This document shows, in pieces, positions 27,109-61,372 of a stretch of DNA of 64,000 bases (position 1 is the first letter of the stretch; each line of letters begins with the position of its first letter). Source of the stretch: Acutalibacteraceae bacterium (lineage in GTDB: Bacteria; Bacillota; Clostridia; Oscillospirales; Acutalibacteraceae); the NCBI GenBank assembly GCA_045532945.1, contig JAZSGZ010000013.1, positions 41,900 through 105,899 on the forward strand, in the 5' to 3' direction. A program made the position numbers and the translations under genes. Under the pieces are notes generated by a model. It did no database searches and was not told the DNA's origin. It saw only the letters and a list, made by a program, of their open reading frames with translations.

Positions 27109-27159
27109 TTCAAATATCTCCTTAAAATTAATACTTACATCAGTGAAGATGTGCAAAAT

Positions 27160-27262
27160 TGTTCTACTTATATATGACAAATTTCGCGAAATACTTCAAA
27201 AAATTTTTGTGATTTTTATCTTTTCTACTTTTTGCACAAAATGATGTTGCGAAAATTGTCGA
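27160..27262 (-). promoter_or_regulatory. conserved promoter-like element, copy A
   Basis: In gene orientation: TTTTGTGCAAAAAGTAGAAA box, A/T tract, TTGAAGTATTT, then GTCATATATAA. Homologous to 28582-28690 and 44965-45044. Confidence 0.6.
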
Positions 27263-28533: not shown

Positions 28534-28581
28534 TGAATCATCCGTTTTTATTAATATATTATTACTATAACTTTAAATATA

Positions 28582-28690
28582 GTTTCTATTTATATATGAC
28601 GGTTTTCGCTAAATACTTCACAATTTTTTTGCGTTTTTTGCTTCTTTTTATCACTTTCTACTTTTTGCACAAAATAAATTTTGTCGATTT
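28582..28690 (-). promoter_or_regulatory. conserved promoter-like element, copy B
   Basis: Same box order as copy A (TTTTGTGCAAAAAGTAGAAA ... GTGAAGTATTTAGCG ... GTCATATATAA), with a 12-nt insertion. Confidence 0.6.
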
Positions 28691-38037: not shown

Positions 38038-39327
38038 TTATACAGGTATTAAAATTGTAATTTTGAATTCGTTGTTATCATATATCCATTCAAGCTCGCC
38101 ATTGTAATTTTTTAATGCTTTAAGAACACTTTTTATACCAAATCCATGTATGTTTTTGTTTTCCTTGGTGGAAATAAGCATTTCTTTGTTTTCTACAGGT
38201 TTTGTTGAGCAACTGTTTTTTACTACGATTTTGTGGAATTTATTATCGCTTTCTAAAAATAAATTAATATATGGGTTTATTTCTTTTTCGGCTCTTTCAA
38301 CAGCATTTCCCAGAAGGTTATCAAGAATGGAAGATAAATCGTAATCATTGATGAAAGACAGATTTTCGTTTAGCGAGACGGTATTGAACTGTATATGTTT
38401 ATCTTTGCAAAGCAAAGCATATTTGTTAATTATCACATCCAGCAATTTGTTTTTTGTTTTAGCTTTAATGGATATTTCATTTGACCTATCGTACATATCT
38501 TTGATGTATTGCTTAACATTTTCTTCTGTTGTCAGGTTTCCAATGTTTATAAGATTGTTGCGAATATCGTGTATAAAAATTCGTGTTTCTTCATCTTTCT
38601 TTTCGAGAATATCAAGATATTCTAAGTTTATTGCTTGTTTTTGTTCAACCATTTCTATATCGTGAAGTTTCTTTTGGTTTGTGATGTCTCTCTCGTGCAC
38701 AGCAAAAACAACAATGTTTGCAATAAACATGAGAACTTCGGCAACTACACACATAGCCGTGGATAATACTGATGATTCAAAGAATTGACTTTGAACTCGT
38801 AGAACAACGGTTATAAAGAAAGTGGTAATAGGTAATATCGTTAAATATATAGAAATTTTCGTTCCTTCTTTTTTTATGCGTTTTTTAGCAAAGGAAGAAA
38901 TTATAGTTAAAAGTATAAAATATAAAAATTTTGCCGCAAAAGCTTCTTCGATAAATATAATAATATCGTTTTTGAAATGTGTTACCTCTAAGTTTAGCAT
39001 GTGTGAAACTATGAATAAAACAGTATATTCCGCAATCCACATTAATGCTACAAGTAATAAAGAATGGAAAAACGCAAGTTTTCGGTCACATTTGAAACCT
39101 AATAAAAGAACTAATCCAAACAAAATGAGTGTTGCTATGATGTTTATAGCTTCACTAAAGAAAAGGTTCAGTAGTAACCACAGAATAATATTTGCAGAAA
39201 AACAAATACATATGGTTGTTTTAAAGTTCGTTTTATAAGGGAAAAGACGATAACCATACCAAAATACTAAATATGTATTTAATAAATATATCAGAAGGGT
39301 TAATGCGTATATCATTGGTTTGCTCAT
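38038..39327 (-). CDS. agrC: AgrC-like (HPK10) membrane sensor histidine kinase
   Basis: About 6 N-terminal TM helices. HDIRNNL H-box. GHKL C-terminus NIHGFGIKSV. Adjacent to a LytTR response regulator. Confidence 0.75.
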   Translation of the reverse strand: MSKPMIYALTLLIYLLNTYLVFWYGYRLFPYKTNFKTTICICFSANIILWLLLNLFFSEAINIIATLILFGLVLLLGFKCDRKLAFFHSLLLVALMWIAEYTVLFIVSHMLNLEVTHFKNDIIIFIEEAFAAKFLYFILLTIISSFAKKRIKKEGTKISIYLTILPITTFFITVVLRVQSQFFESSVLSTAMCVVAEVLMFIANIVVFAVHERDITNQKKLHDIEMVEQKQAINLEYLDILEKKDEETRIFIHDIRNNLINIGNLTTEENVKQYIKDMYDRSNEISIKAKTKNKLLDVIINKYALLCKDKHIQFNTVSLNENLSFINDYDLSSILDNLLGNAVERAEKEINPYINLFLESDNKFHKIVVKNSCSTKPVENKEMLISTKENKNIHGFGIKSVLKALKNYNGELEWIYDNNEFKITILIPV

Positions 39328-39329
39328 TC

Positions 39330-40037
39330 TTACATCCCTCTTTCTGCATACAAGAACATTTTTGTTCTGAATTCTTTTTGTTTTTTAGGAGCGATTGATA
39401 TATCTGTTGTTTTTTCGTCATATTCCAAAACGAGAGAAGTGCGATTAAAGCTTTTAATGAAATTAAAGTTAACAATAAAGCTTGTGTGAGGTGAATAGAA
39501 ATTAACTTCATTTAATTTTTCTTTCCAAAACTCAATCTTTTCTTTAGAAACATATTCACCATCAGTTGTGATGATACGAGTTTTTCGTTTGTATATTTCG
39601 CAATATACTATTGTGTTAGTTGATATAATTGCAGAATTATTATCGGCACATATGATTTTTATTTCTTTGTTTGAGATTGAAAGTAGTGCCGCATCTAATG
39701 AACGATACAAACGAATTATATCCAATGGCTTTTGTAAAAATCTATATGCACCTATTTCAAAAGCATCATCAAGATAATCAGAGTAAGCAGTAACCATAAA
39801 TATAATTATATTGTTGAATTTTTGTTTAAGCTTTTTACCAATTTCAACACCACTTATAGAAGGCATTTCTACATCAAGAAACGCCATATCAAAGCATATA
39901 TCACTATCAAGAAGCTCGTTGCCATCTTCATATGAGTAAATTTCGGTGCTTATCGTTTTGTCATTGAAATAGTTAACCAATGCATTTTCAACATCTTTTA
40001 TAATTTTCTTATCATCGTCACAAATCGCAATTTTCAC
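39330..40037 (-). CDS. agrA: LytTR-family response regulator (AgrA-like)
   Basis: Receiver domain KIAICDDD...FLDVEMP, plus a C-terminal LytTR domain. GTG 40037 follows GGAGGG. Confidence 0.8.
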   Translation of the reverse strand: MKIAICDDDKKIIKDVENALVNYFNDKTISTEIYSYEDGNELLDSDICFDMAFLDVEMPSISGVEIGKKLKQKFNNIIIFMVTAYSDYLDDAFEIGAYRFLQKPLDIIRLYRSLDAALLSISNKEIKIICADNNSAIISTNTIVYCEIYKRKTRIITTDGEYVSKEKIEFWKEKLNEVNFYSPHTSFIVNFNFIKSFNRTSLVLEYDEKTTDISIAPKKQKEFRTKMFLYAERGM

Positions 40038-40121
40038 AATTACCCTCCAAAAAATAAATGCCGTAAACATTATTTTAAGTTTACGGCATTAAAAATAGTT
40101 TGTCAAATGTTATTTGGAGTA

Positions 40122-40660: not shown

Positions 40661-40822
40661 ATGAATGTGAAAAACAAAATTCAGGTGAAAACTGCATCTG
40701 TAATTAAAAAGGCGGTTAATCATTCTTGCAAGGTTGATGCTAATTCAACAACGTGTCTTTCAATTTATCAGCCTAAAGCACCGGCAGCACTTAAAAACTT
40801 CAGTAAGTTTAATAAAGAATGA
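40661..40822 (+). CDS. agrD: AgrD-type cyclic-lactone autoinducer peptide precursor (not in ORF track)
   Basis: GGGAGGTG RBS present. Sequence MNVKNKIQVKTASVIKKAVNHSCKVDANSTTCLSIYQPKAPAALKNFSKFNKE. A Cys plus 4 residues followed by a QPKAP motif, as in clostridial AgrD. Stop overlaps the agrB start (ATGA). Confidence 0.7.
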   Translation: MNVKNKIQVKTASVIKKAVNHSCKVDANSTTCLSIYQPKAPAALKNFSKFNKE

Positions 40823-41409
40823 TTAGCAGTATCGCTTCAAAGGTTGTAAAAAAACTTATTGATAGTGCAGTTATCTCTGACACTGAGCAAGAACTATATT
40901 TATATGGATTCTTTGTATTGATTTCACAGATACTATATTTCACTTTAACAATAATATTTGGAATTATATTGGATATAGTTCTTGAAAGTGTTGTTTTCTA
41001 CATTGCTTTTCAATTTATCAGAAGGTATGCCGGTGGAATACATGCTTCAAGTGAATTGAAATGTGCAGTTGCAACCACAACATCAATATTTCTTTGCCTG
41101 TTTTGTGTTAAGTTGTGTGAAACAAGTAATATACAGGTTTTTGTTTTGATGCTTACAGCATTATCATCTGCTTTTATATTTGTTTTTTGTCCGCTTGATA
41201 CACCTGAAAAACCACTTACTGAAAAAGAATATAAATATTTTCGCAAGATTTCCAGAATAGTGTTAATGGTTTTGTTAGTTGTTATTATTGTCTGTGTAAT
41301 TATAAAATCAAATGTAGCATATTCTGTGTGTTTTGGCATAATACTAGAATCCTTTTTGTTAATTGCCGGAAGATTAAAAAGATTCTATAACAGAAAATAT
41401 GTTGGATAA
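40819..41409 (+). CDS. agrB: AgrB-family autoinducer-processing membrane protease
   Basis: Polytopic membrane protein with the conserved FIRRYAGGIHA motif. Confidence 0.8.
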   Translation: MISSIASKVVKKLIDSAVISDTEQELYLYGFFVLISQILYFTLTIIFGIILDIVLESVVFYIAFQFIRRYAGGIHASSELKCAVATTTSIFLCLFCVKLCETSNIQVFVLMLTALSSAFIFVFCPLDTPEKPLTEKEYKYFRKISRIVLMVLLVVIIVCVIIKSNVAYSVCFGIILESFLLIAGRLKRFYNRKYVG

Positions 41410-43264: not shown

Positions 43265-43327
43265 TGCTGGATATATAAATGTTGTTGTGATAGTGTTGTG
43301 TCGAAATCAAGTAAAGGTGGTGCACTA

Positions 43328-44914
43328 ATGGCTGGCGAAAGAGTGTATTGTTTATATCGTGTATCAACTTCAAAGCAAGTTGATATGGATGAACATAATT
43401 TAGCGGATATCCCTATGCAACGAAAAGCTTGCAGAGAGTTTGCTAAAAAAATGGGTTGGGACATTATTCGTGAGGAACAAGAAAACGGAGTATCCGGATT
43501 CAAAAAGAGTGCTGCTGAAAGAGATAAGATACAACTTATTAAAGAGCATGCCGTAAAAGGTTTGTTTGACATATTACTAGTTTTTATGTTTGACAGATTA
43601 GGAAGGAAATCAGATGAGACACCATTTATTGTAGAATGGCTCTGCTCACAAGGTATTAAGGTTTGGAGCGTCAATGAAGGTGAACAACGCTTTGACTCTC
43701 ACACAGATAGACTCACCAACTACATAAGATATTGGCAGGCTGATGGTGAAAGCCAAAAAACTGCAATCAGAACAAGAACTGCCATGGAACAAATGGTCAT
43801 GGATGGCAGATGGCGTGGTGGTATACCACCATTTGGATATAGAGCTGTAAAAAGCGGTATAGTTAACAAAAGAAAACATGAAGTATATAAATTGGAGATA
43901 AACGAAGAAGAAGCTGTAATAGTAAGACTGATATTCGACCTATCTGCAAATAGTGGATATGGAAGATGGAAAATTGCTACCATATTAAATGAACGTGGTT
44001 ATAAAACTCGTAGTGGTGGTACATGGGTAGATTCAAGTGTAGGACATATACTTCATAACAATATTTACATAGGTATGTTAAAGAATGGTTCGGCAATATC
44101 GGGACCGTATGAAGAATTAAGAATTATTGATGATGTTACTTTCTATAAAGTACAAAAACAAACAAATTTACGAACTAATGAAAAAAACAATGAAAGAACA
44201 ATACCTTTAAATATATCGGGTCAATCACTGTTATCCGGTAATGTGTTCTGCGGACATTGTAAAGGCAGACTCACATTAACAACCAATGGTGAAACCCGAA
44301 AACATGTAGACGGTACATCTGTACACAGAAGAAAAGTCAGATACGTTTGCTATAATAAAACAAGAAAAAAATTAAACTGCGATGGCCAAACAGGATACAC
44401 TATGCGTATCTTGGATGAAAAGGTCATCGCAGTTTTACATATGATTTTTGATAAAATGAAAGATATGACACCACAGGAAATGGCAAGTCATATTCATGAC
44501 AAACAGATGTCAAATTTAAAAATTGAGTTATCGGCAGCAAAAGCAAAATTTGATAAAGCGGAGAAAGAATACAATGCCTTAAAAAGTGAAATTGTAAAAT
44601 CTATCCAAGGTGAAAGCAAGTACAATGCAGATATACTATCGGAGCTTTTGATATCAGCTCAAGAAACGTTAGAAACTGCAAAGAAAAGTTATTTAGAAGC
44701 TCAAAACAACTATACTCAAGGTGAATTACAAATACAGGAATTAACTAACAACTATACTCGAATACTCAGATGGTCAGAGATTTTTGATGAGAGTCCTATG
44801 GAAACCAAAAAACAAATAGCTAGTATGATAATAAATAGAGTGTATGTTTATGAAGGTTATCGGTTGGAGTTTGAGTTTAATATTAATTTTGAAAACATTT
44901 GCAAAAACAAATGA
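43328..44914 (+). CDS. large serine recombinase (ICE integrase)
   Basis: Resolvase catalytic domain with YCLYRVSTSKQ. Recombinase and zinc-ribbon region CGHCKGRL...VCYNK. C-terminal coiled coil. Confidence 0.85.
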   Translation: MAGERVYCLYRVSTSKQVDMDEHNLADIPMQRKACREFAKKMGWDIIREEQENGVSGFKKSAAERDKIQLIKEHAVKGLFDILLVFMFDRLGRKSDETPFIVEWLCSQGIKVWSVNEGEQRFDSHTDRLTNYIRYWQADGESQKTAIRTRTAMEQMVMDGRWRGGIPPFGYRAVKSGIVNKRKHEVYKLEINEEEAVIVRLIFDLSANSGYGRWKIATILNERGYKTRSGGTWVDSSVGHILHNNIYIGMLKNGSAISGPYEELRIIDDVTFYKVQKQTNLRTNEKNNERTIPLNISGQSLLSGNVFCGHCKGRLTLTTNGETRKHVDGTSVHRRKVRYVCYNKTRKKLNCDGQTGYTMRILDEKVIAVLHMIFDKMKDMTPQEMASHIHDKQMSNLKIELSAAKAKFDKAEKEYNALKSEIVKSIQGESKYNADILSELLISAQETLETAKKSYLEAQNNYTQGELQIQELTNNYTRILRWSEIFDESPMETKKQIASMIINRVYVYEGYRLEFEFNINFENICKNK

Positions 44915-44964: not shown

Positions 44965-45044
44965 TTTTTTTGTGGAAAAAGTCGAATTTTGTAAAAACTG
45001 AAAAATTTTTTGAAGTATTTGCAATATTTTGTCATATATATATG
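44965..45044 (+). promoter_or_regulatory. conserved promoter-like element, copy C
   Basis: TTTTGTGGAAAAAGTCG ... AAAAATTTTTTGAAGTATTTGC ... TTTGTCATATATATA. Aligns with copies A and B. Lies 35 nt upstream of the FRG gene. Confidence 0.6.
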
Positions 45045-45078
45045 CAGGGTAATTCAATTAAGAAAGGAATAAATACAG

Positions 45079-45945
45079 ATGTATTATTTTAGTCAAGTAC
45101 AAATTAATAGTATAGGTAGTTATATCGAAGAAGTAATTAGAATGAAATATATCTGCGACTCGTCCAAAGAATATTTCCAGTGGTATAGAGGACATGCCGA
45201 TGCATCTTGGGAACTTTTACCCAAAATTCAAAGGGGTTTTAATGGAGCTGACGAAGAATTGTTTCGTAAAGAAAGGTTTTACACTAATGATTTTCAAGCT
45301 CGAGCAAGCATTTTTAAATCACCCAAGCCTAAACTTAATGAATATGCCAATTGGCTTACTTTAATGCAACACTATGGGCTTCCTACTAGACTGTTGGATT
45401 GGTCTAGATCGCCACTAGTTGCATTATACTTTGCCGTTTCCGAAGAAACTGAAATTGAAAAAGATGCTTGTGTATGGGTCTTAACTCCAGGTAAATTGAA
45501 TGAGTTAGAAAGACTAGAAAAATCTTCTCAAGTAGATGATAAAGAATATGATAATACATTTATATATAATATGGAACACAAAACAGTATCAACGATGATT
45601 TATACAGCATTTAAGCGCTGGGAGTTAAGCGATAACAAAAAAGCGATAACACCAGAAGATAAAAAATTTGATTACAGATTTAAAACACTAAGAGATAAAA
45701 TAGTGGCTTGCTATCCGACAGAATCAGACTCTAGAGTTTATAATCAGTTGGCTGCATTTACAGTACATAATTCCACAAGAAAATTAGAAGATATATGTAA
45801 TGATAAAACACTTATGAAAATAATTATTCCTCATGAATTTAAACAAACATTATTATATGAATTGCGTGTTTGTGGAATAACCGATAGTTATATATATCCG
45901 GATTTGGAACATTTAGCAAAAGAACTTGAAAGTTTTATAGATTAA
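45079..45945 (+). CDS. FRG-domain protein
   Basis: WYRGH...W.LLPK and LMQHYGLPTRLLDWSRSPLVALYFAV match the FRG domain signature. Confidence 0.7.
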   Translation: MYYFSQVQINSIGSYIEEVIRMKYICDSSKEYFQWYRGHADASWELLPKIQRGFNGADEELFRKERFYTNDFQARASIFKSPKPKLNEYANWLTLMQHYGLPTRLLDWSRSPLVALYFAVSEETEIEKDACVWVLTPGKLNELERLEKSSQVDDKEYDNTFIYNMEHKTVSTMIYTAFKRWELSDNKKAITPEDKKFDYRFKTLRDKIVACYPTESDSRVYNQLAAFTVHNSTRKLEDICNDKTLMKIIIPHEFKQTLLYELRVCGITDSYIYPDLEHLAKELESFID

Positions 45946-46004
45946 CTTTTGGGTATTATCAACTTATATTTTTATTAAAATACACCTTGGTGGGGAGTGT
46001 AAAT

Positions 46005-48275
46005 ATGTTAGAATTAAAAGTTTTTATTGCATCTTCAGGAGAATTATCAGAAGAAAGAGAAGTTCTAAAAACATTTATTAATACTGAAAGTGATTTTTAT
46101 CATGATTTTGGTCTTTATATAAAACCAATTATGTGGGAATTGGAGTCAAAAAAATTTGCGGAAGGAAGAAAACAAGAAGAGTATAACGAATTGCTAAGAA
46201 ATTGTGATATAGCAATTTTTATGTTTGGCACAAAAGTAGGTAATTATACTAAGGAAGAATTTAATGTTGCTGTAAAGAACAAACGAAAAAATAATATACC
46301 AAAATATATTTTCACCTATTTTAAAGAGGGTAAAATATCATCTGGAAAACTTTCCAAAGAAGATATAGTAAACCTACGAGCTGTTTTTGATTTCAAAAAA
46401 CAAATAGCCAACAATCATAAACAAGTTTATGATTTCTTTTATAATATTGATGATTTACGACTGAAAATTGGTCGCGAAATAAATAAAATAGTTCTTCCAT
46501 TAATTGTTGATAAAAAGAATACTATTCAAATTGGTAAATCCCAGGAATTTATTGATTTGTACAATAGTATAGAGCCAGCATTCCAGACAATATATAAAAA
46601 CACCATAATTGATTCTGCAATAAATCAATTATACTTACTACGGAGATACAATATAAAACCTAAACTCAGTCAATTAAGCGAAGAAGAATTTTATGTATTG
46701 TGTAACACAATAATTGATAGTACACAAAGAGGTTCGGAGATTAAAGCTCTTTCTATGATGTTGAAGTGCGAATGGAACAACTCTAATCACGAAAAAAGTT
46801 TTTGGAAGTCAAATGCTGATGCCGTATCTAGACAAGCAATGTTGGAAAGAATATTTATAGTAAAAAGAGATGAAGCACACCGGATAAAAAACATCCCACA
46901 AATACTTCAACATATCGAAAATGATAGTGAATATTTAAAACCTTATGTAGTTGAAAAAGAGTATCTCCAAGAAAACAATCCTGAACTTCTTAAAAGAGCA
47001 CAGGAGGGCTTTATATTAATAAATGATCAGACTAATAGAGTTGCTCTTTTAGATAACGATCCACAGAGTGGTATGCGTGGAACACCAATTTTTGATAATG
47101 AGGAACTTAACAATTTAGAAAATATTTTTAACGATATAAAAAATATTGCTGTTCCTTTAAATGAATACCTGAAAGAAATAAAATTATCTCATTACAAAAA
47201 AGAAATGTTCTCTGTATTTGTTACCACTGAATGCAATTTGAACTGTGATTATTGTTTTACTAACAAATACTCTGATAATCATCAAAATCAAACTATAGAT
47301 TTTGATTTTGTCAAAAAGGGTATTGATGACTATTTTGCAACAGATTATTTGCGCCATATTAGATTTTTCGGTGCAGGAGAGCCTACAGTAAAACTAGAAC
47401 TAATAAAAAAAATATGTTCATATGCTGTTGATAAAGGCGGAGAAGCGGTAACCTTTGAAATACAAACCAACGGTGCTTTTAATGACAATACTGCGTATTG
47501 GCTTTCACAAAATATTGATGTAATATGGATCTCCTGTGATGGAACACCGGAGATGCAAGATTTACATAGGTTGTGTTTGGATAAAACAAAAAAATCATCT
47601 CAACTTATAGAAAAAAATATAAAGATCCTAAAAAAAAGCAAGAAGTGCTTCGTTGGAATAAGAGCAACAATAACAAACGAAAATATCAACAGGCAACTTG
47701 AAATGATTGATTATTTTTATAGCTTAGGTATAACCGAAATATGGGTAGATCCACTATTTCCTTCTGTTGCAGAAACAATTGAAAAAGTTGATTTTGATAA
47801 TATGCATTTTGCTAAAAAATTTCTTGAAGCATCTAGATATGCCAATGACAAAGGAATATTTTATGGCAGTATAATGACATGTAATTTTGGTGATTCTGTA
47901 ACCAAACACTGTAGAGCATGCATTCCGGTACCTCATTTAACAACGGATGGTTATGTATCTGCTTGTGATATGGCATTATTTGGAGAAGACAAAAATCATA
48001 TGAGCGATTTTATATACGGTAGATGGAATTCTAATACAAAAGAAATAGAATATGATCAAGCAAAAATAAAAAAACTGCAGTCACGTAGTACTGAAAATAT
48101 GAATCATTGTAACGATTGCCCATCTAAAGATCATTGCGGAGGTTATTGTTTGGGGGAAGTACTTAACGAGACAAAAGATTTATTTGGAAGAAAAAAAGGC
48201 GTTTGCGAAGCAATAAAATATTTAGATAAAAATATGGAAAATAGACTTCGAAACTATAAACATACACATCCTTAA
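46005..48275 (+). CDS. three-part fusion: DUF4062/TIR-like N-domain, unknown middle domain, radical SAM with full SPASM domain
   Basis: N-terminus KVFIASSGELSEEREVL. rSAM CNLNCDYC (Cx3Cx2C) and GAGEPT. SPASM GYVSAC ... CNDCPSKDHCGGYC (Cx2Cx5Cx3C). ATG 46005 follows GGTGGGGAG. Confidence 0.7.
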   Translation: MLELKVFIASSGELSEEREVLKTFINTESDFYHDFGLYIKPIMWELESKKFAEGRKQEEYNELLRNCDIAIFMFGTKVGNYTKEEFNVAVKNKRKNNIPKYIFTYFKEGKISSGKLSKEDIVNLRAVFDFKKQIANNHKQVYDFFYNIDDLRLKIGREINKIVLPLIVDKKNTIQIGKSQEFIDLYNSIEPAFQTIYKNTIIDSAINQLYLLRRYNIKPKLSQLSEEEFYVLCNTIIDSTQRGSEIKALSMMLKCEWNNSNHEKSFWKSNADAVSRQAMLERIFIVKRDEAHRIKNIPQILQHIENDSEYLKPYVVEKEYLQENNPELLKRAQEGFILINDQTNRVALLDNDPQSGMRGTPIFDNEELNNLENIFNDIKNIAVPLNEYLKEIKLSHYKKEMFSVFVTTECNLNCDYCFTNKYSDNHQNQTIDFDFVKKGIDDYFATDYLRHIRFFGAGEPTVKLELIKKICSYAVDKGGEAVTFEIQTNGAFNDNTAYWLSQNIDVIWISCDGTPEMQDLHRLCLDKTKKSSQLIEKNIKILKKSKKCFVGIRATITNENINRQLEMIDYFYSLGITEIWVDPLFPSVAETIEKVDFDNMHFAKKFLEASRYANDKGIFYGSIMTCNFGDSVTKHCRACIPVPHLTTDGYVSACDMALFGEDKNHMSDFIYGRWNSNTKEIEYDQAKIKKLQSRSTENMNHCNDCPSKDHCGGYCLGEVLNETKDLFGRKKGVCEAIKYLDKNMENRLRNYKHTHP

Positions 48276-48314
48276 AAATCTTCGTAAGTATATTAATAAA
48301 GTCAAGGAGTTTTC

Positions 48315-49106
48315 ATGAAAAAAGATAATACTTTTTGGATATATTGGAAAAGCAATGTATTGAAAAACAAAGATATTATTAGCCTCATGTTTTCAATATG
48401 TACGCTTATCCAGACTAGTATTTTGTATTGGATATATAACAAATACGGCCAATTCTTAGAACAATACCATAATATTTTTTATGCAGGAATAATTGTACTT
48501 TTCTTTGTAATGTTATTAAGTTTTTTAATACACATATGTACAGAGTCAATTGAAAAATCTGTTGATGAGTTTTCTAAAGCAGAGAAAATAAAATGTTGTA
48601 AAAGAGATTTGCTAACACCTACACCACAAGAATATCAAAAAGCAATGAAAATAATTTCACTAAATGAGATTGAAGACATAGAAAGCAACATCTCCAAAGA
48701 TGGAAAGATATGGGTGCTCACATCCAATGTTAACCTAGAAACAACAATTAGTACAATATCTCAAATTATATTAGATAATTTGAGTCGAAGCATTGAATAT
48801 AAGTATTTTATTCCTAACACACGAAATAATGCTGCAAAATTTCTCGAATTGCATGAAAAGTATAAAGAATATCCAACCTTTCAAATATTAAAAATCGACG
48901 AAAAATACAAATTGTTATTTGAGAATTTTGATGTCATTATTTATTATCCGAACAAGAATCACAAAGAAGGCAGAAAAGCTTTTATTTGCATTAAATTTTC
49001 AGATAATGAAAATGAAATCTTGTTTAGGCAACTTTCGGAGGAGGATACCGAAAACCTCGTTAGCCATTTAATAAGAATAGAAGTTGAGGAATCTTTAACA
49101 TGTTAA
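48315..49106 (+). CDS. membrane protein (2 TM) with cytoplasmic C-terminal domain; paralogue of the next gene
   Basis: Two N-terminal helices. C-terminal domain IWVLTSN...IEYKYFIP...FDVIIYYP...AFICI. Confidence 0.55.
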   Translation: MKKDNTFWIYWKSNVLKNKDIISLMFSICTLIQTSILYWIYNKYGQFLEQYHNIFYAGIIVLFFVMLLSFLIHICTESIEKSVDEFSKAEKIKCCKRDLLTPTPQEYQKAMKIISLNEIEDIESNISKDGKIWVLTSNVNLETTISTISQIILDNLSRSIEYKYFIPNTRNNAAKFLELHEKYKEYPTFQILKIDEKYKLLFENFDVIIYYPNKNHKEGRKAFICIKFSDNENEILFRQLSEEDTENLVSHLIRIEVEESLTC

Positions 49107-49867
49107 GGAATAGAATTAAAAAAATTTTTTATATATCATCATGCATAATAGCAATTCTTTCGTTTGCCATTAAAGTTATAATTGATAAAATTGGCTCAAC
49201 ATCGTTGAACATCTCTTCACATACTTATATTAAAATATTAGTGTTTTCTATTATCTTTACATTAATGGTGTATACTCTTCTAATATACTTTAAGTATAAT
49301 AATGATACTAGACGTAGTGCTTGCTCTTGCATTTATGATCCTAAATTTTTGTGCTGCTTTTTACATGCTAACCATCTCAAAGAATTTTATGGAGAAAATT
49401 CTAAAATATTTGATGATGTTGAATTAGCAGAAATTGAAATAAATGTGAAAACTAAAGAAATCTGGCTTTTATCTCCAGATTTTTCTTGTGAAGAAGGAAA
49501 TAATACTTTTGATTACGTTGTAAGTACAAGATTGAGAGAGGGAGTACATTACCGATTTGTTGCATTAGATACTCCGATTTCTAGAGAACGTGCAAGGAGA
49601 ATTTTCAAGAAATACAGTACCATAGTTACACGAAAGTATATTCATTTTTATTTAATAACTAGTGATGAATATTCATTATTTCTATCTCTATATTCTTTAG
49701 CAATTTATAATCCAACTAATATTGATACAGAAGCTTATGTATGTATTGGTGAAACAGGTAATAACGAAAACGCAATTTATGCAAAGCTTAACGAAAAACA
49801 CACGCAATTAGCTACCGAAACTGTTAGAGAACTACTCGAAAATAGTAAAGAAATTAAAATTATTTAG
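49100..49867 (+). CDS. membrane protein (2 TM) with cytoplasmic C-terminal domain; paralogue of the previous gene
   Basis: Overlaps the upstream gene by 7 nt. C-terminal domain IWLLSPD...VHYRFVAL...YSLAIYNP...AYVCI. Confidence 0.55.
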   Translation: MLRNRIKKIFYISSCIIAILSFAIKVIIDKIGSTSLNISSHTYIKILVFSIIFTLMVYTLLIYFKYNNDTRRSACSCIYDPKFLCCFLHANHLKEFYGENSKIFDDVELAEIEINVKTKEIWLLSPDFSCEEGNNTFDYVVSTRLREGVHYRFVALDTPISRERARRIFKKYSTIVTRKYIHFYLITSDEYSLFLSLYSLAIYNPTNIDTEAYVCIGETGNNENAIYAKLNEKHTQLATETVRELLENSKEIKII

Positions 49868-50089: not shown

Positions 50090-50214
50090 TTTTATTGATT
50101 TTTGTGCCAAAAGTGGTTGCGATAATTTAGAATGAAGACTTGTTAGGAACAAAAAGTCTTTTGTTTTATAATTAAAATTCATTTCTGAGGATGTTTATCT
50201 GTTAATTCGGGAGA
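50090..50214 (+). repeat. direct repeat, left copy
   Basis: Core ggatgtttatctgttaattcgggaga (50189-50214) matches 51935-51960 at 25/26 positions. Upstream blocks ttttattgatttttgtgcc and gttttataattaaaatt also recur at 51657 and 51901. Confidence 0.7.
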
Positions 50215-50347: not shown

Positions 50348-51604
50348 GTGGCACTAAGAGATTCGGATATTATAATAAATAGAATGGATCATCCGTCTTG
50401 TGTAACTGCATTCATTCGTTGTGTCAATCTTGCAATAAAGCGTAAGCGAAAAAGTTTGAATGTAATATGTAAGTGTGAAAGAAACAGTATTTTTCCAGAT
50501 GCATGTCTGCCAATTTCGGCACTTATTCAAAATTATAAAAAGTTTTATGATGTGGATTTCAATATAGTTATAAATGATAATATGTATTTGCAACAATGTC
50601 ATTTTGACTCTCCCATAGACCCAACATTAGAAGAATTAGAAAAATGCAGAAATCCCTTAAATAAAATATTTATGTATTCTTACAAGGAAGGTAATGCCGG
50701 ACAGGTTGGCAAGCTAGTTCAAGCATATATTGATTGTATCAGTAGAACAACACAATGCGAAGATGGTGTGCTTTCAGGATTAATTTGGTGTATCAATGAA
50801 GTTATGGACAATGTTTTGGTTCATAGCAAAGAAAATACCGGTTATATTATGGCACAATATCACAGAAAAAAGAAAATTCTTGCAATTTGTGTTTATGACT
50901 GCGGTATAGGTATTTTCGAATCGCTTTCTGAAAGCAAGCATAAACCCGCAACAGAAATTGATGCTCTCACTATGGCAATTCAAGAGGGCGTTGGTGATGG
51001 TAAAGGTCAGGGAAATGGACTTTATGGTTTGTATCAGATTGTTGATGAAAATGGTGGAAAATTGACAATTACTTCGGGTAAATCATCAATAATGCTGAGA
51101 AACGGAGCTTTAGAAAAATTCGATAATGGTGTTTTGGTCGCAGATAAACATGCAGGTACTATTGTTGATTTTCAACTTGATTTGTCAAAGAAAATTGATA
51201 TACAGTCAGCTTTAAAAAGTTTAGATGGTTTTGATGGCTTTGATATTCGTATAGACGATATGTGGCAAGACGACGATTGGTTAAAATATGATGTTTATAA
51301 GAATTGCAGCGGTACGGGAACAAGATTAGCAGGAAAAGAATTAAGAAATGATGTTCTCAATATTATGCGTAAAACAAATGCACCTATGATTTTAGACTTT
51401 TCTTCAGTTAAAGCATGTAGTTCATCATTCATTGATGAATTTATAGCAAAACTAATGGTTGAAATAGGTCCTTTAGAATTTAACAAGACTATAAAAATCA
51501 TCAACATGAATCAATTGGTTTCTCATTTGTGTGAACGTTCAATACTTATGCGTATGCATCAAAGTTGGCAAGAGATAATTGAAACTGACGAAGATGTAGA
51601 TTGA
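50348..51604 (+). CDS. GHKL (histidine-kinase-like) ATPase fused to a DUF4325/STAS-like domain
   Basis: N-box INEVMDNVLVHS. G1 box VYDCGIGI. G2 box GKGQGNGLYG. The C-terminus ILDFSSVKACSSSFIDEFIAKL is typical of DUF4325. Start uncertain: GTG 50348 or ATG 50384. Confidence 0.6.
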   Translation: MALRDSDIIINRMDHPSCVTAFIRCVNLAIKRKRKSLNVICKCERNSIFPDACLPISALIQNYKKFYDVDFNIVINDNMYLQQCHFDSPIDPTLEELEKCRNPLNKIFMYSYKEGNAGQVGKLVQAYIDCISRTTQCEDGVLSGLIWCINEVMDNVLVHSKENTGYIMAQYHRKKKILAICVYDCGIGIFESLSESKHKPATEIDALTMAIQEGVGDGKGQGNGLYGLYQIVDENGGKLTITSGKSSIMLRNGALEKFDNGVLVADKHAGTIVDFQLDLSKKIDIQSALKSLDGFDGFDIRIDDMWQDDDWLKYDVYKNCSGTGTRLAGKELRNDVLNIMRKTNAPMILDFSSVKACSSSFIDEFIAKLMVEIGPLEFNKTIKIINMNQLVSHLCERSILMRMHQSWQEIIETDEDVD

Positions 51605-51900: not shown

Positions 51901-52143
51901 GTTTTAGATTAAATTGTATCAAAATGTTTGTTGGGGATGTTTACCTGTTAATTCGGGAGAGCGTTTGACTGGCAGTCAAGAGGTCTCGAACCCATAGTCC
52001 ATCTCGTGCGGTTCGCCTTGGCGGAGCACGAGGGACATAAAATCGGGGGAATTCGCTCATTCTCCGTCTTTATTGAAATACCTGTGCGTTTATGGTATAC
52101 TTTTATAAATAAATTACAACGCTGTATCTGTGAGGTATGTAAT

Positions 52144-55226: not shown

Positions 55227-56543
55227 TTAATACTTTTTTGCCTTGCACGGCTTGTGGAATATAGGCATTTTTTCACCTGCATTTACCATTTCCCGGGCCA
55301 GAAGTGTCCGCATCTGCTGTAAAACCTTGGAGTAATTTTCATCCTTCACAAGATTATTCTTCTCGCAGGGGTCGTTTTTCAGGTCGTAGAGATAATCGTC
55401 AAAGTAATGAACAGCCCTCGGCTTGTGCCAGCCCGATCCGATTGCCCTCGCTGAATATTTCCATTCCTTTGTGCGGACTGCTCTGCCTATATGTGACTCG
55501 CTTATCTGAATGAATACACAATCCCTTTCAGGCGCATCTGTGCCATTTACAGGCAAAGCATTGCCTGAATAGCTTTCGGGGATTTCTATACCTGCCAGAT
55601 TAAGTATTGTGGGAGGCAGGTCAATAAGGCTTGCAAGTGCATCGGTATTTTCTGCTACAGGTATTGCACCGCCACCAAAAACAAGGGGAGTGTGAATACA
55701 GGAGTCGTGACAGCTGCGTTTGTATTCAAAATTACGTGTTTTGAAGTGGCACCCGTGGTCACTTGTATAAATAATTATCGTGTTATCATATATGCCCTTT
55801 TCCTTAAGTGTATCAACAAGCTTGCCCACGTTTTCGTCAAGCCTGTTGATAGCCGCGATGTAATCGGGGTATTCTTTTTTGTAGTCACCGCTTAAAAATG
55901 ATAAATCCTCGGGGATGGGGTAATCCTTATATTTATCAATAGCTTCCTTAGGTCCTTCAAAGTGACCGTGGTCATTCTGGTGGTGAGGCTCAAGCTGTGA
56001 AATGAACATAAAGAACGGCTTTTCACCGTTGTGGTTGTTTATGTATTCAACCGCAAAATCATTTATACAATCTGCACGGTAGCCTGTGAACTCAACTTTA
56101 TTTCCTTTTTCATCGAAAACGTATCCGTCATAGCCGTGTGATGTGAATTCAAGTACGTCTGCACCGCGCCAATATTTGTAACCGCCTTGTTTTTCAAGGG
56201 GGACAGCGGTTTTTTCACAATGACAGCCTCTGCCGGGAGCTCTGTCTGATGCAAGGTGCCATTTGCCGATATATGCAGTATCGTAGCCGTTTTCATTAAA
56301 GTGGTCGGCTAAAGTTTTTGAATTTTCCTGCAACGGAATACCGTTCCAATAGCATTTGTTTTCTGTGGCATACTGACCTGTCTGCAAGCAGGCGCGGGCG
56401 GGACCGCACACAGGCTGACATGTGAAGGAATTTTCAAACAATAATCCTTGCTCACCAAGTGTCCACACATTCGGCATAATGTTTTCATTAAGAGTATCCC
56501 AACGCTGTTGGTCTGAAAAATAAAATATAATGTTCGGTTTCAT
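55227..56543 (-). CDS. sulfatase (Cys-type, formylglycine-dependent)
   Basis: IIFYFSDQQRWD and the CxPxR motif QPVCGPARACLQTG. Confidence 0.8.
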   Translation of the reverse strand: MKPNIIFYFSDQQRWDTLNENIMPNVWTLGEQGLLFENSFTCQPVCGPARACLQTGQYATENKCYWNGIPLQENSKTLADHFNENGYDTAYIGKWHLASDRAPGRGCHCEKTAVPLEKQGGYKYWRGADVLEFTSHGYDGYVFDEKGNKVEFTGYRADCINDFAVEYINNHNGEKPFFMFISQLEPHHQNDHGHFEGPKEAIDKYKDYPIPEDLSFLSGDYKKEYPDYIAAINRLDENVGKLVDTLKEKGIYDNTIIIYTSDHGCHFKTRNFEYKRSCHDSCIHTPLVFGGGAIPVAENTDALASLIDLPPTILNLAGIEIPESYSGNALPVNGTDAPERDCVFIQISESHIGRAVRTKEWKYSARAIGSGWHKPRAVHYFDDYLYDLKNDPCEKNNLVKDENYSKVLQQMRTLLAREMVNAGEKMPIFHKPCKAKKY

Positions 56544-59492: not shown

Positions 59493-61343
59493 ATGAAGAA
59501 AAGCTTATCATTCGTTATGTGCGTGATTATGCTCGTTTCGATCTTTTCTGTTCTGAGTGTTACTGCGAGCGCTGTTTCGCCGCTGAATGCTATGAGAATT
59601 GAATCGAGCTCCTTTGAAAATGATTACGTAACATACAACATTTATCTTAAAAAGAATGTTACCCTTAACGGTGCTATTATAAGGGTGGTTTATGATGCAT
59701 CCGTTCTTCAGCCCGTTTGTGCTAATGACGGTGCATTTATGAGGAAGGATTCTTACGGAGACCCTGTGCAGAATGTTCCCGGTTTTTATACTTCCGGCAA
59801 TTCCATTGACGGAACAAATATTTTTACAATCGGTTACGTTACCCTTAATGCGTACAGCACGGGCTCGAGCGAGAAGGGCTTTATGACACTTAAGTTTAAA
59901 GCAATTCACCCCGACAGACCCCAGACACAGGTTAAGTTCTACTGTATGGAATTCAACAGCACTGACCCGAATCTTAATATCCCCAAGACTGATACTTATC
60001 CTGAAGGTATGTACACACACACAACCTCAACAATCAGCAGACTTAAGCTGAGCTCAGTTGTTGCCACCGGCACAGGCCTTAGAGTTACGTGGCAAAAGGG
60101 TGCAGGTGCCGCAAACTACAGAGTTTTCAAATTAAATAAAACAACAAACAAGTATGATCTTATTGCTACTGTGCCTGCAACACAGACTTTTTATGATGAT
60201 AATACCGTGAAGTCCGGTGAAACTGCAACATATTCAGTAAGAGCCCTTGATAAGAACGGTATTCTTGACTCAGGTTTTGCGGGTAGTATATCGGGTTCAT
60301 TTGTTGTTGCACCTGCAAAGGTTTCGACCTCGGTTCAGCCCACGGGCATGAAGGTGGGTTGGACTCTTGTATCAGGAGCAACCTCCTACAAGATATACAG
60401 ACGTGAAGCGGGTACATCGACCTGGACTTATGTTGCCGACGCAAAGAAAGATGCAACAACGTACATTGATGTACAGGCGCCCAGCGGAAAAAGACTTGAG
60501 TACGGTGTTAAGGCTTGTGTGAGCAGCGGTTCGAGTGCCACAAAGATATCTGCACCTATGTGGTTTTATAAAGCTCCCGTGTTTACATTGACTGCGGTTA
60601 CCGGCGGTGTAAATGTTAAATGGAGTGCTGTAGCGGGTGCTGCGAAGTATAACGTTTATCGTAAATACAATGGTGCAAAGAGCTGGACATATATTGCTAC
60701 TGTCAGTTCAACGTCGTATCTTGACAAAGCGGCTGTTTCCGGCAGAAATATTGATTATACTGTAAAAGCGTATGGAGCAAACGGAAACAGCGCATATGTT
60801 TCAAAGCGTATTGCTTATGTTGGTGTTCCTCACCTCACAAGTATTACCAATGCTACAAATGGTATTACGGTCAAGTGGAGTGCGGTACAGAATGCAAGTG
60901 GCTACAGAGTTTACAGACGTGCCGCGGGCGAGAAATCCTGGACATATCTTACAACCACAACGGCTGTATCATATACGGATAAGAATGTTAAAAGCGGTGT
61001 TTACTATAAGTACACCGTAAGAACTGTTTTCTATAAACTGTACAGTAATTTTGAAAGCGGCTTGCTTATCAAGTGTGTAGCAACACCAAAGCTTACATCA
61101 ATTGCCAACAGTTCAGCAGGTATTACGGTTAAGTGGAATACCGTAAGCGGTGCAAACGGCTACAGAGTTTATCGCCGTGGTGCAGGTCAGACTACATGGA
61201 CCTACCTCGGAACAGTAACCGGCGGTTCATATACGGATAAAAATGTTGCTAAGGGTCAGTATTACAGATATACGGTAAGAGCTGCATCCGGCAATGTATT
61301 CAGCGGTTTTGATACAAACGGTCTTGTTACCAAGCGTTCATAA
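59493..61343 (+). CDS. secreted surface protein: cohesin-like N-domain plus about 7 FN3-like repeats
   Basis: Signal peptide present. N-domain ...IRVVYDASVLQPV. Repeats follow the pattern W..V.GA.GYRVYRR...W.Y......YTD..V..G..Y.YTVRA. Confidence 0.65.
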   Translation: MKKSLSFVMCVIMLVSIFSVLSVTASAVSPLNAMRIESSSFENDYVTYNIYLKKNVTLNGAIIRVVYDASVLQPVCANDGAFMRKDSYGDPVQNVPGFYTSGNSIDGTNIFTIGYVTLNAYSTGSSEKGFMTLKFKAIHPDRPQTQVKFYCMEFNSTDPNLNIPKTDTYPEGMYTHTTSTISRLKLSSVVATGTGLRVTWQKGAGAANYRVFKLNKTTNKYDLIATVPATQTFYDDNTVKSGETATYSVRALDKNGILDSGFAGSISGSFVVAPAKVSTSVQPTGMKVGWTLVSGATSYKIYRREAGTSTWTYVADAKKDATTYIDVQAPSGKRLEYGVKACVSSGSSATKISAPMWFYKAPVFTLTAVTGGVNVKWSAVAGAAKYNVYRKYNGAKSWTYIATVSSTSYLDKAAVSGRNIDYTVKAYGANGNSAYVSKRIAYVGVPHLTSITNATNGITVKWSAVQNASGYRVYRRAAGEKSWTYLTTTTAVSYTDKNVKSGVYYKYTVRTVFYKLYSNFESGLLIKCVATPKLTSIANSSAGITVKWNTVSGANGYRVYRRGAGQTTWTYLGTVTGGSYTDKNVAKGQYYRYTVRAASGNVFSGFDTNGLVTKRS

Positions 61344-61372
61344 AAACAGTAAGAAGTTAAGGAGGAATTAAA

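Follow-up and report, generated by a model that had tools for sequence, protein, structure and literature searches.

A candidate mobile conflict module centred on a DUF4062–radical SAM/SPASM fusion in an Acutalibacteraceae bacterium

Proteins that carry a DUF4062 domain, also called NIR, are strongly associated with defence (2026 preprint). The domain is a TIR-like NADase effector by experiment in Avs, Vulcan, Vesta, Swarozyc, and Evangelion, and it is shared with human TEP1 (2026 preprints). The domain is marked by an aromatic residue at its N-terminal end, by a Q/W/E motif, and by a catalytic Glu that lies in an acidic-SYT or E-Y region (Evangelion and NIR preprints, 2026). Here we describe a four-gene locus in a 64,000-nucleotide stretch of DNA from an Acutalibacteraceae bacterium (assembly GCA_045532945.1, contig JAZSGZ010000013.1, positions 41,900 to 105,899 of the forward strand), which is called the window below and whose first letter is position 1. 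Gene 2 of this locus fuses a DUF4062/NIR domain to a middle domain (Mid) and a radical SAM/SPASM enzyme. It is preceded by gene 1, which encodes an FRG protein, and followed by genes 3 and 4, which encode paired membrane proteins (Table 1). We tentatively propose, at somewhat less than even confidence, that genes 2–4 form a mobile conflict module, most likely anti-phage or anti-plasmid, in which a small molecule would be read by the accompanying domains and trigger NAD+ depletion and membrane damage.

Gene 2 resembles the described DUF4062/NIR proteins (Evangelion, Swarozyc, Vulcan/Vesta, NIR-Avs) in having an N-terminal core with the same motifs and a variable C-terminus, and in being a single gene found on mobile elements as well as in defence islands. 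It differs in that its C-terminal portion is Mid plus a full radical SAM/SPASM enzyme, its Pfam score is slightly below threshold, and a membrane-protein pair is optionally present. The prokaryotic viperins (pVip) are likewise radical SAM enzymes of defence islands, and a small-molecule (nucleotide) product is plausible in both cases. However, viperins lack a SPASM domain, a NIR/Mid fusion, and partners resembling phospholipase D (PLD). The best matches to the enzyme are SPASM maturases (CteB, anaerobic sulfatase maturase, PapB, and ChlB), which share its CX3CX2C and seven-cysteine SPASM motifs. Unlike these enzymes, gene 2 is found without a leader-binding RRE domain, a precursor peptide, or a conserved sulfatase partner, and short-chain dehydrogenase/reductase (SDR) and small-molecule enzymes recur nearby.

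CBASS, Thoeris, and Pycsar effectors (2TM-SAVED, TM-Macro ThsA, TIR-SAVED) also place an effector with a C-terminal sensor-like domain beside an enzyme, a likeness of architecture only. In the present locus, the putative generator is a radical SAM/SPASM enzyme rather than a CD-NTase, cyclase, or TIR, and the putative sensor is PLD-like or Mid rather than SAVED, SLOG, Macro, or STING. No CBASS, Pycsar, or Thoeris generator or sensor model in PADLOC or Pfam matched genes 2–4 or their relatives. The PLD-like fold of gene 4, which lacks the HKD catalytic motif, recalls TrmB regulators and pseudo-PLD proteins (FAM83 DUF1669), and a homologous domain is fused to a helix-turn-helix (HTH)-like region in four related loci (L019, L020, L025, and L036; related loci and proteins carry L and P numbers throughout). 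In contrast to TrmB, the gene 4 domain has no detectable sequence similarity to that family, is anchored by two transmembrane helices, and occurs as one of a paralogous pair. Finally, likeness to the PADLOC candidate PDC-S15 is confined to gene 1, which has no conserved link to genes 2–4.

The original prediction, made by a model from the sequence alone, held that the gene 2 fusion was not to be recognized among described systems, and our searches agree. Neither the NIR–Mid–radical SAM/SPASM architecture nor cassettes of the enzyme with pseudo-PLD proteins were found in PADLOC or in full-text literature searches, and radical SAM is not mentioned in the 2026 DUF4062 preprints. DUF4062 defence proteins and radical SAM viperins are each already known.

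The gene 2 fusion and its parts

A search of 5.8 billion proteins recovered ∼66 full-length clusters of gene 2 relatives, which are 747–789 amino acids (aa) long and 50–100% identical over 99% of the query. Most members come from gut and rumen Clostridia. Because these clusters align over the whole length, the three-part fusion is a stable family and not an assembly artefact, and the DUF4062–X–radical SAM/SPASM arrangement originally described is real. All motifs quoted in that prediction are present in the translation, including KVFIASSGELSEEREVL, CNLNCDYC, GAGEPT, G655-x4-C660, and C708-x2-C711-x5-C717-x3-C721 together with C740. Alignment of the family suggests that Met7, at nucleotide 46005, is the likely true start.

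The N-terminal domain scores 20.2 bits against DUF4062 (PF13271), slightly under the cutoff of 24.7, and this model is matched by 19 of the 37 family members at E ≤ 0.1 (best 7e-5). A profile hidden Markov model (HMM) built from the domain finds NLR-like proteins with LRR-Roc or TPR regions (P0073, P0075, and P0076) at E ∼1e-25, and tblastn (6e-16) aligned gene 2 residues 4–169 with a plasmid-encoded Acaryochloris protein annotated as DUF4062. F13, W50-E51, and T88/E91-F92 are invariant in 37 family sequences. These residues supply the N-terminal aromatic, Q/W/E, and catalytic Glu motifs of DUF4062/NIR, with Phe in place of Tyr after the Glu. The domain is thus predicted to be a NADase effector whose catalytic motifs are intact. 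Separately, L001 encodes a receiver-domain protein with a weak match to the NIR-domain HMM (E = 3e-4).

The C-terminal portion of gene 2 scores 38.9 bits against the Pfam Radical_SAM model. Across the family, C416/C420/C423 (CX3CX2C), GAGEPT, C645...G655-x4-C660, and C708/C711/C717/C721/C740 are invariant, and by both motifs and fold the protein belongs to the radical SAM/SPASM enzymes. An AlphaFold2 (AF2) model of gene 2 (pLDDT 81) gave as best Foldseek matches CteB (5why, 7e-14) and anaerobic sulfatase maturase (4k37, 1e-10), with probability 1.0, and also ChlB; a phmmer search of PDB sequences likewise returned CteB (7e-14). Viperins match the model over the core only, and the PADLOC pVip match is restricted to residues 410–572 (E = 1e-12). 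Scores against curated NCBIfam models are far below their cutoffs, with PapB being the best (107 against 340 bits), followed by anaerobic sulfatase maturase TIGR03942 (70 against 349.45) and viperin NF038283 (40.8 against 180). Because this is true of every curated model, the enzyme represents a new SPASM clade.

Several functional assignments were considered for this enzyme and rejected. A sulfatase (55227–56543, minus strand; PF00884, E = 8.5e-45) is present in the window. It resides outside the AT-rich element that carries gene 2, in the flank of higher GC content, and is unrelated to the radical SAM gene. Given also the low TIGR03942 score and the absence of any related locus that pairs the enzyme with a sulfatase, a role as maturase for this protein is not supported. 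The original prediction was to be abandoned if the enzyme clustered with sulfatase maturases and the gene set was not conserved; neither was observed (70 against 349 bits; gene set conserved). Maturation of ribosomally synthesized and post-translationally modified peptides (RiPPs) of the PapB, SCIFF, or sactipeptide kind was also rejected. Beyond the low PapB score, there is no conserved precursor, the small open reading frames (ORFs) downstream in L001, L002, L007, and L015 being mutually unrelated, and Pfam detected no RRE in gene 2 or its family. Assignment as a viperin fails on score, on similarity that is limited to the core, and on the presence of SPASM. Relatives of gene 2 or gene 4 were not found in IMG/VR, and a phage origin was rejected on this basis.

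The enzyme domain also exists as stand-alone proteins of 360–380 aa. With one genome scanned for each GTDB species, such proteins showed ∼50% identity in Actinomycetes, Bacteroidota, Chloroflexota, Melainabacteria, the candidate phyla radiation (CPR), and Bathyarchaeia, and 34–38% identity in several further lineages of Archaea and Bacteria. The long form constitutes a single clade in the tree. One 41%-identical relative is located on a C. perfringens plasmid (L054; NZ_CP102303.1, 64926–72686) among MFS, SDR, AsnB-like, AMP-binding, and two radical SAM genes, an apparent small-molecule biosynthetic operon.

Mid is predicted to be a ligand- or signal-sensing module. A profile of residues 181–400 searched against 1.84 billion representatives retrieved 306 proteins at E ≤ 1e-3. 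In ∼60% of the best 148 matches, Mid comes after one or two N-terminal helices predicted to span the membrane, and most of the 306 are proteins of ∼300 aa that begin with a transmembrane region and end in Mid. Other fusion partners include a calcineurin-like metallophosphoesterase, HD-CE, and HTH with SDR; the Mid-fused phosphoesterase matches a CBASS effector model and PDC-S60, and the Mid protein of L051 is an SDR–Mid fusion. Mid is therefore a widespread C-terminal module on effector-type heads. Its similarity to DUF6879 is weak (P0130, 22.7 bits against a threshold of 23.9). Searches of PDB sequences with Mid profiles gave nothing, and Foldseek lists for the full gene 2 model are dominated by radical SAM matches, which mask the Mid fold. 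A plasmid search with a protein that joins two transmembrane helices to Mid (2TM-Mid) gave no match.

Paired membrane proteins and conserved neighbourhoods

Genes 3 and 4 are paralogous membrane proteins, as had been proposed, with a BLASTP E-value of 5e-10 and a family-profile HHalign probability of 98% (E = 2e-13, 234 columns). The AF2 model of gene 4 (pLDDT 78) adopts a PLD-like alpha/beta fold, as judged from Foldseek matches to Nuc (1byr, E = 1.1e-4, TMt 0.62), TrmBL2, the TrmB sugar-binding domain, FAM83, PLD2, and vaccinia F13 (E = 1e-4 to 1e-2). The HxK(x)4D catalytic motif is missing, since the gene 4 family carries H182-F-Y and the gene 3 family has no His at this place. The cytoplasmic domains are therefore catalytically dead pseudo-PLD domains, with a predicted role in binding a ligand or partner. 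In the gene 4 model, the family-invariant C77, C85, and C86 are located on a low-confidence hairpin after the two transmembrane helices. In the gene 3 family, one Cys is conserved right after the second transmembrane helix, within x-C-[CSY]-[KR]-[RK]. A word-indexed homologue search with gene 3 found nothing beyond its own cluster, and its orthologues were recovered only by analysis of gene neighbourhoods.

The conserved unit comprises three genes, genes 2–4, which recur as a set at ∼50% identity in other genomes. This bears out the expectation of a conserved neighbourhood for these genes but not for the FRG gene, which was found in none of ∼15 other loci with relatives of gene 2, of genes 3 and 4, or of the short enzyme. 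Five gene 4 homologues that were looked up all have the order enzyme, gene-3-like, gene-4-like, and gene 3 orthologues lie between the radical SAM gene and the gene 4 homologue in L041, L043, L044, L046, and L052. The order differs in L023, where a short enzyme follows the pair; in L037, a gene-4-like ORF abuts a short enzyme. Every examined gene 4 relative adjoins a gene 3 homologue and a radical SAM enzyme of the gene 2 clade, the latter being either the long fusion or the short stand-alone form. In a neighbor-joining tree, the enzymes linked to genes 3 and 4 fall on several separate branches. Therefore, the partnership has either persisted over ∼45–55% sequence divergence or been repeatedly reassembled.

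Other partners also accompany the clade. In L019, L020, L025, and L036, a 420-aa protein is encoded ahead of the stand-alone enzyme. It has an HTH-like N-terminus and a C-terminus homologous to the gene 3/4 domain (HHalign 95%, E = 2.9e-8), an arrangement that recalls TrmB, and this cassette adjoins an integrase, transposase, or BrxC/D-like gene. A Cys-rich protein always occurs with these two genes (L020 3595–4572, L036 2931–4559, L019 3072–4606, and L025 3118–4497). It contains 15–19 cysteines and several copies of CxxC, along with an FPEM motif that recalls carbon–nitrogen hydrolases, and gave no Pfam match.

Mid is provided in trans in L044–L047 and L052, each of which has another enzyme of the clade in one operon with a transmembrane-Mid protein and two SDRs. 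In the L044/L046/L052 island, this second enzyme has 370 aa and the transmembrane-Mid protein 303–307 aa, with the gene 2 Mid as its C-terminus (E ∼1e-48); in its transmembrane part, the L044 protein bears a weak resemblance to ThsA, KwaA, and CBASS 2TM effectors. This island (L044 4805–11638, and likewise in L046 and L052) is flanked by integrases and contains two convergent operons of the same radical SAM clade, one with enzyme, gene-3-like, and gene-4-like genes and the other with enzyme, SDR, transmembrane-Mid, and second SDR genes, followed by T5orf172 and a type I restriction-modification (RM) system. Taken together, the loci show that the enzyme clade is the constant part and that its partners are swappable, being PLD-like or Mid domains on a transmembrane hairpin, HTH, or the NADase within gene 2.

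Gene 2 is also widespread without genes 3 and 4. Neighbours of the long form vary and include ThsB-TIR with caspase-like genes, AAA with S8 peptidase genes, AbiJ, integrases, a type IV secretion system, and even housekeeping genes. The nearest relative outside the window's own cluster (L014 2860–4294, 89% identical) has an SDR and a 234-aa membrane protein in place of genes 3 and 4, which shows that the downstream partner swaps rapidly. This membrane protein is unrelated to genes 3 and 4 and has a C-terminal HCC motif. In L001 (5601–7902) and L039 (4546–5922), caspase-like Peptidase_C14 and ThsB-type TIR genes precede the gene 2 homologues, of which the L039 copy is a fragment. Across related loci, neighbours include serine recombinases of integrative and conjugative elements (ICEs), integrases, type I RM, T5orf172, an AAA_15/OLD-TOPRIM and UvrD-helicase pair that we read as Gabija-like, ThsB-TIR with caspase-like genes, AbiJ, GmrSD, and BrxC/D-like genes.

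Mid and the cytoplasmic domains of genes 3 and 4 had been proposed to share one module of ∼110 aa, and profile comparison does not support this proposal. Between Mid and the gene 3/4 domain, BLASTP found nothing, hmmsearch gave ∼1 bit, and the pairwise HHalign probability was <1% with narrow, broad (132 sequences), and secondary-structure-augmented profiles. The 420-aa family matched Mid at only E = 0.021. With all of these tests non-significant, sequence homology between the two domains was rejected. The predicted order of secondary-structure elements, beta-alpha-beta-alpha-beta-alpha-beta-alpha-beta-beta-beta-alpha, is identical in gene 2 (229–387) and gene 4 (103–248), and the three motif triplets on which the proposal was based map to strands 2, 3, and 5 in both. 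Moreover, both domains are commonly C-terminal to a transmembrane hairpin and both are encoded next to the same radical SAM clade. The idea of a shared module is kept alive because element order, position after the hairpin, and enzyme partner coincide.

Proposed function and competing explanations

Domain identities, conservation of catalytic motifs, paralogy of genes 3 and 4, conservation of the neighbourhood, and a mobile or defence-island context are directly established for this module. We infer a defence role, a substrate that is a small molecule rather than a peptide, ligand sensing, and formation of a heterodimer. In the mechanism we propose, the radical SAM enzyme would make or transform a small molecule, with SDR oxidoreductases taking part in some loci. 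Mid and the PLD-like domains would bind the product. Bound Mid would switch on the DUF4062/NIR NADase in cis within gene 2 and deplete NAD+, and the transmembrane hairpins of a gene 3–gene 4 heterodimer would be activated in trans and damage the membrane. The outcome would be growth arrest or abortive infection.

A defence reading is favoured by the gene 2 N-terminal domain, which retains the three DUF4062 motifs including the catalytic Glu. The fusion of Mid to effector-type modules (transmembrane hairpins, metallophosphoesterase, HD-CE, and NIR) also favours the proposed module, as do the linkage of gene 4 homologues to the enzyme clade, the HTH-fused partner, the supply of Mid in trans, and the mobile-element and defence genes nearby. 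Hints of a small-molecule substrate come from recurrent adjacent SDR genes, SDR–Mid fusions, the L054 cluster, and the likeness of gene 4 to the TrmB sugar-binding domain.

Several observations weigh against the conflict module as proposed. The defence role is inferred from context and one domain. In PADLOC, genes 3 and 4 match no model and gene 2 has only the core-level viperin match. The enzyme's close structural relatives with a characterized activity, namely CteB, anaerobic sulfatase maturase, and ChlB, all modify peptides or proteins rather than small molecules. Generator, sensor, and effector on one chain would be unusual for a signalling system. About seven of 10 distinct long-form contexts are without genes 3 and 4, and a recognizable Mid or gene-3/4-type partner is missing from roughly half of the loci with a stand-alone enzyme. 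A metagenome scan with the 2TM-Mid profile gave four loci, of which L051 holds the SDR–Mid fusion and L050 is too short to display neighbours; in L048 and L049, the 2TM-Mid gene stands alone among mobile-element genes with no enzyme nearby. The profile comparison that failed to connect Mid with the gene 3/4 domain (HHalign <1%) must be added to this list.

The strongest competing explanation, which we nevertheless regard as somewhat unlikely, is that gene 2 is self-sufficient, an abortive-infection protein of the single-gene DUF4062 kind exemplified by Evangelion, Swarozyc, and Vulcan, in which NIR would be the effector and the Mid and radical SAM/SPASM portions would sense a phage cue, with genes 3 and 4 being an optional add-on or a separate system. 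Described DUF4062 systems do consist of a DUF4062 core and a variable AUX/sensor region, most gene 2 homologues are alone in mobile or defence contexts, and the long form is one clade. However, a C-terminus that serves only as a sensor is at odds with the retention of all catalytic and cluster residues and with the ∼50% identity to stand-alone enzymes from Bacteria, Archaea, and CPR. For these reasons, the radical SAM portion is an enzyme selected for its chemistry rather than a mere scaffold for binding. Genes 3 and 4 also never occur without an enzyme of the clade, and they occur with short forms that have no NIR.

It is unlikely that the SPASM enzyme is instead a maturase of the membrane proteins, arming or regulating them by a thioether cross-link or a formylglycine-type oxidation of the juxtamembrane cysteines of genes 3 and 4. 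The nearest solved relatives do act on Cys-containing peptides or proteins, PapB is the top NCBIfam model, both membrane-protein families have conserved cysteines (C77, C85, and C86 in that of gene 4; the Cys after the second helix in that of gene 3), and the genes are strictly linked to the enzyme. Yet no cysteine is conserved in transmembrane-Mid partners, for example P0117, and many enzymes of the clade have no gene-3/4-type neighbour. All peptide-maturase models score far under their cutoffs, RRE was not detected, and chemistry on small molecules is indicated by the SDR, AsnB, and AMP-binding neighbours.

Still more doubtful is a non-immune role in a mobile secondary-metabolite or cofactor pathway, for which PLD-like and Mid proteins would serve in regulation, transport, or immunity and NIR would carry out a metabolic NAD+ or nucleoside step. 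The C. perfringens plasmid cluster would suit such a role, as would the PAD_porph and SDR neighbours in L018, the resemblance of the HTH-fused protein to a pathway regulator, and the relation of the DUF4062 fold to nucleoside deoxyribosyltransferases. Against it, DUF4062 proteins have a strong association with defence and experimentally shown NADase activity, the neighbours vary by genome and are typical defence or mobile-element genes, and the module has only one to three genes with no consistent biosynthetic partners. Finally, despite tight packing, one promoter-like element upstream of gene 1, and NAD+ utilization predicted for both FRG and NIR, an obligate four-gene system is highly improbable given that FRG is absent from every other locus with relatives of genes 2–4 and is by itself a PADLOC single-gene candidate.

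Mobile-element setting and wider meaning

Four co-directional, tightly packed ORFs are present as originally described, with spacings of 41 nt, 39 nt, and a 7-nt overlap in order from gene 1 to gene 4. No terminator-like site was found between them, and they are probably co-transcribed from the promoter-like element upstream of gene 1. This element, which had been noted as copy C, is genuine and has three copies in the window. A three-way alignment reveals that the copies have AAAAATTTTTTGAAGTATTT-N10-GTCATATATA in common over ∼45 nt, and they may act as promoters. One element type thus precedes two S8-peptidase genes and the FRG gene, which suggests that cargo operons of the mobile element are under a common regulator.

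Gene 1 is an FRG protein, as stated in the original prediction (PF08867, 86.4 bits against a cutoff of 25, E = 2.6e-24). Fifteen PADLOC models for the single-gene candidate PDC-S15 match it, PDLC04938 best (E = 6.7e-54). FRG has been assigned to the ADP-ribosyltransferase (ART) superfamily and is a predicted NAD+-using immune domain (PMC9503650). Because FRG genes are absent from all related loci, gene 1 is a neighbour that shares a transcript here and not a component of the conserved unit, contrary to the four-gene grouping first proposed. It is a candidate for an independent defence gene.

The predicted recombinase upstream of the operon was recovered by family scan as a large serine recombinase at 43298–44914, directly upstream of the promoter-like element and gene 1. 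The four genes have a GC content of 26–34%. This had been taken to mark an AT-rich islet, but GC content is ∼30% across 38–52 kb of the window and 38–44% beyond 52 kb, and low GC is therefore a property of the whole mobile element. The element also contains an agr-like quorum-sensing set, with a GHKL kinase (38038–39327), a LytTR response regulator (39330–40070), and AgrB (40819–41409). The gene after the operon (50348–51604) encodes a GHKL ATPase with DUF4325 (STAS-like), and its match to the DISARM DrmA model covers the N-terminal part of that model (E = 2e-27). Direct repeats of 40 nt that are 83% identical (50175–50214 and 51921–51960) flank this gene, which resembles a cassette inserted on its own. 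Near the window end (60849–63995) are several families of 25–133-nt direct repeats with 66–91% identity, of which those at 60849–61343 lie within an ORF (59493–61343).

Table 1. Features of the locus and of related loci
Feature	Position	Strand	Remarks
Promoter-like element copies A, B	27140-27235 and 28562-28657	reverse	Upstream of two minus-strand S8-peptidase genes
Promoter-like element copy C	44975-45070	+	Upstream of gene 1; TTGAAG 45010-45015, GTCATATATA 45031-40
Gene 1 ORF	45079-45945	+	288 aa
Gene 2 ORF	45987-48275	+	762 aa
Gene 2 DUF4062/NIR TIR-like domain, residues 7-177	46005-46517	+	Predicted NADase effector
Gene 2 Mid domain, residues 181-400	46527-47186	+	Helical linker, then alpha/beta domain 229-387
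Gene 2 radical SAM core and complete SPASM, residues 401-762	47187-48275	+	Two auxiliary-cluster motifs
Gene 3 ORF	48315-49106	+	263 aa; two transmembrane helices (∼aa 20-41, 53-76), CC at aa 94-95, cytoplasmic PLD-like domain without HKD
Gene 4 ORF	49100-49867	+	255 aa; two transmembrane helices (aa 2-33, 40-70), linker C77/C85/C86, PLD-like domain aa 103-248 without HKD
Enzyme/gene-3-like/gene-4-like loci L041-L043			Long enzyme, 759-761 aa
Enzyme/gene-3-like/gene-4-like loci L044-L047, L052			Short enzyme, 383 aa

The role of radical SAM chemistry in prokaryotic immunity has so far been confined to viperins. A SPASM enzyme linked to a NADase effector and to membrane proteins, if true, would be a second and chemically different branch. 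Fusion of NIR to an enzyme could reveal the trigger of such effectors. In addition, Mid and pseudo-PLD domains are widespread and unannotated (306 Mid clusters, mostly membrane proteins), and assignment of a ligand would annotate many genes. The module is small, with one to three genes, and is directly tractable by experiment. In its broadest form, a possibility that we consider somewhat unlikely, the finding would define a new class of immune signalling or toxin-making systems in which a radical SAM/SPASM generator acts through pseudo-PLD or Mid sensors that gate NADase, membrane, phosphoesterase, and HD effectors, carried on mobile cassettes in Bacteria, Archaea, and CPR.

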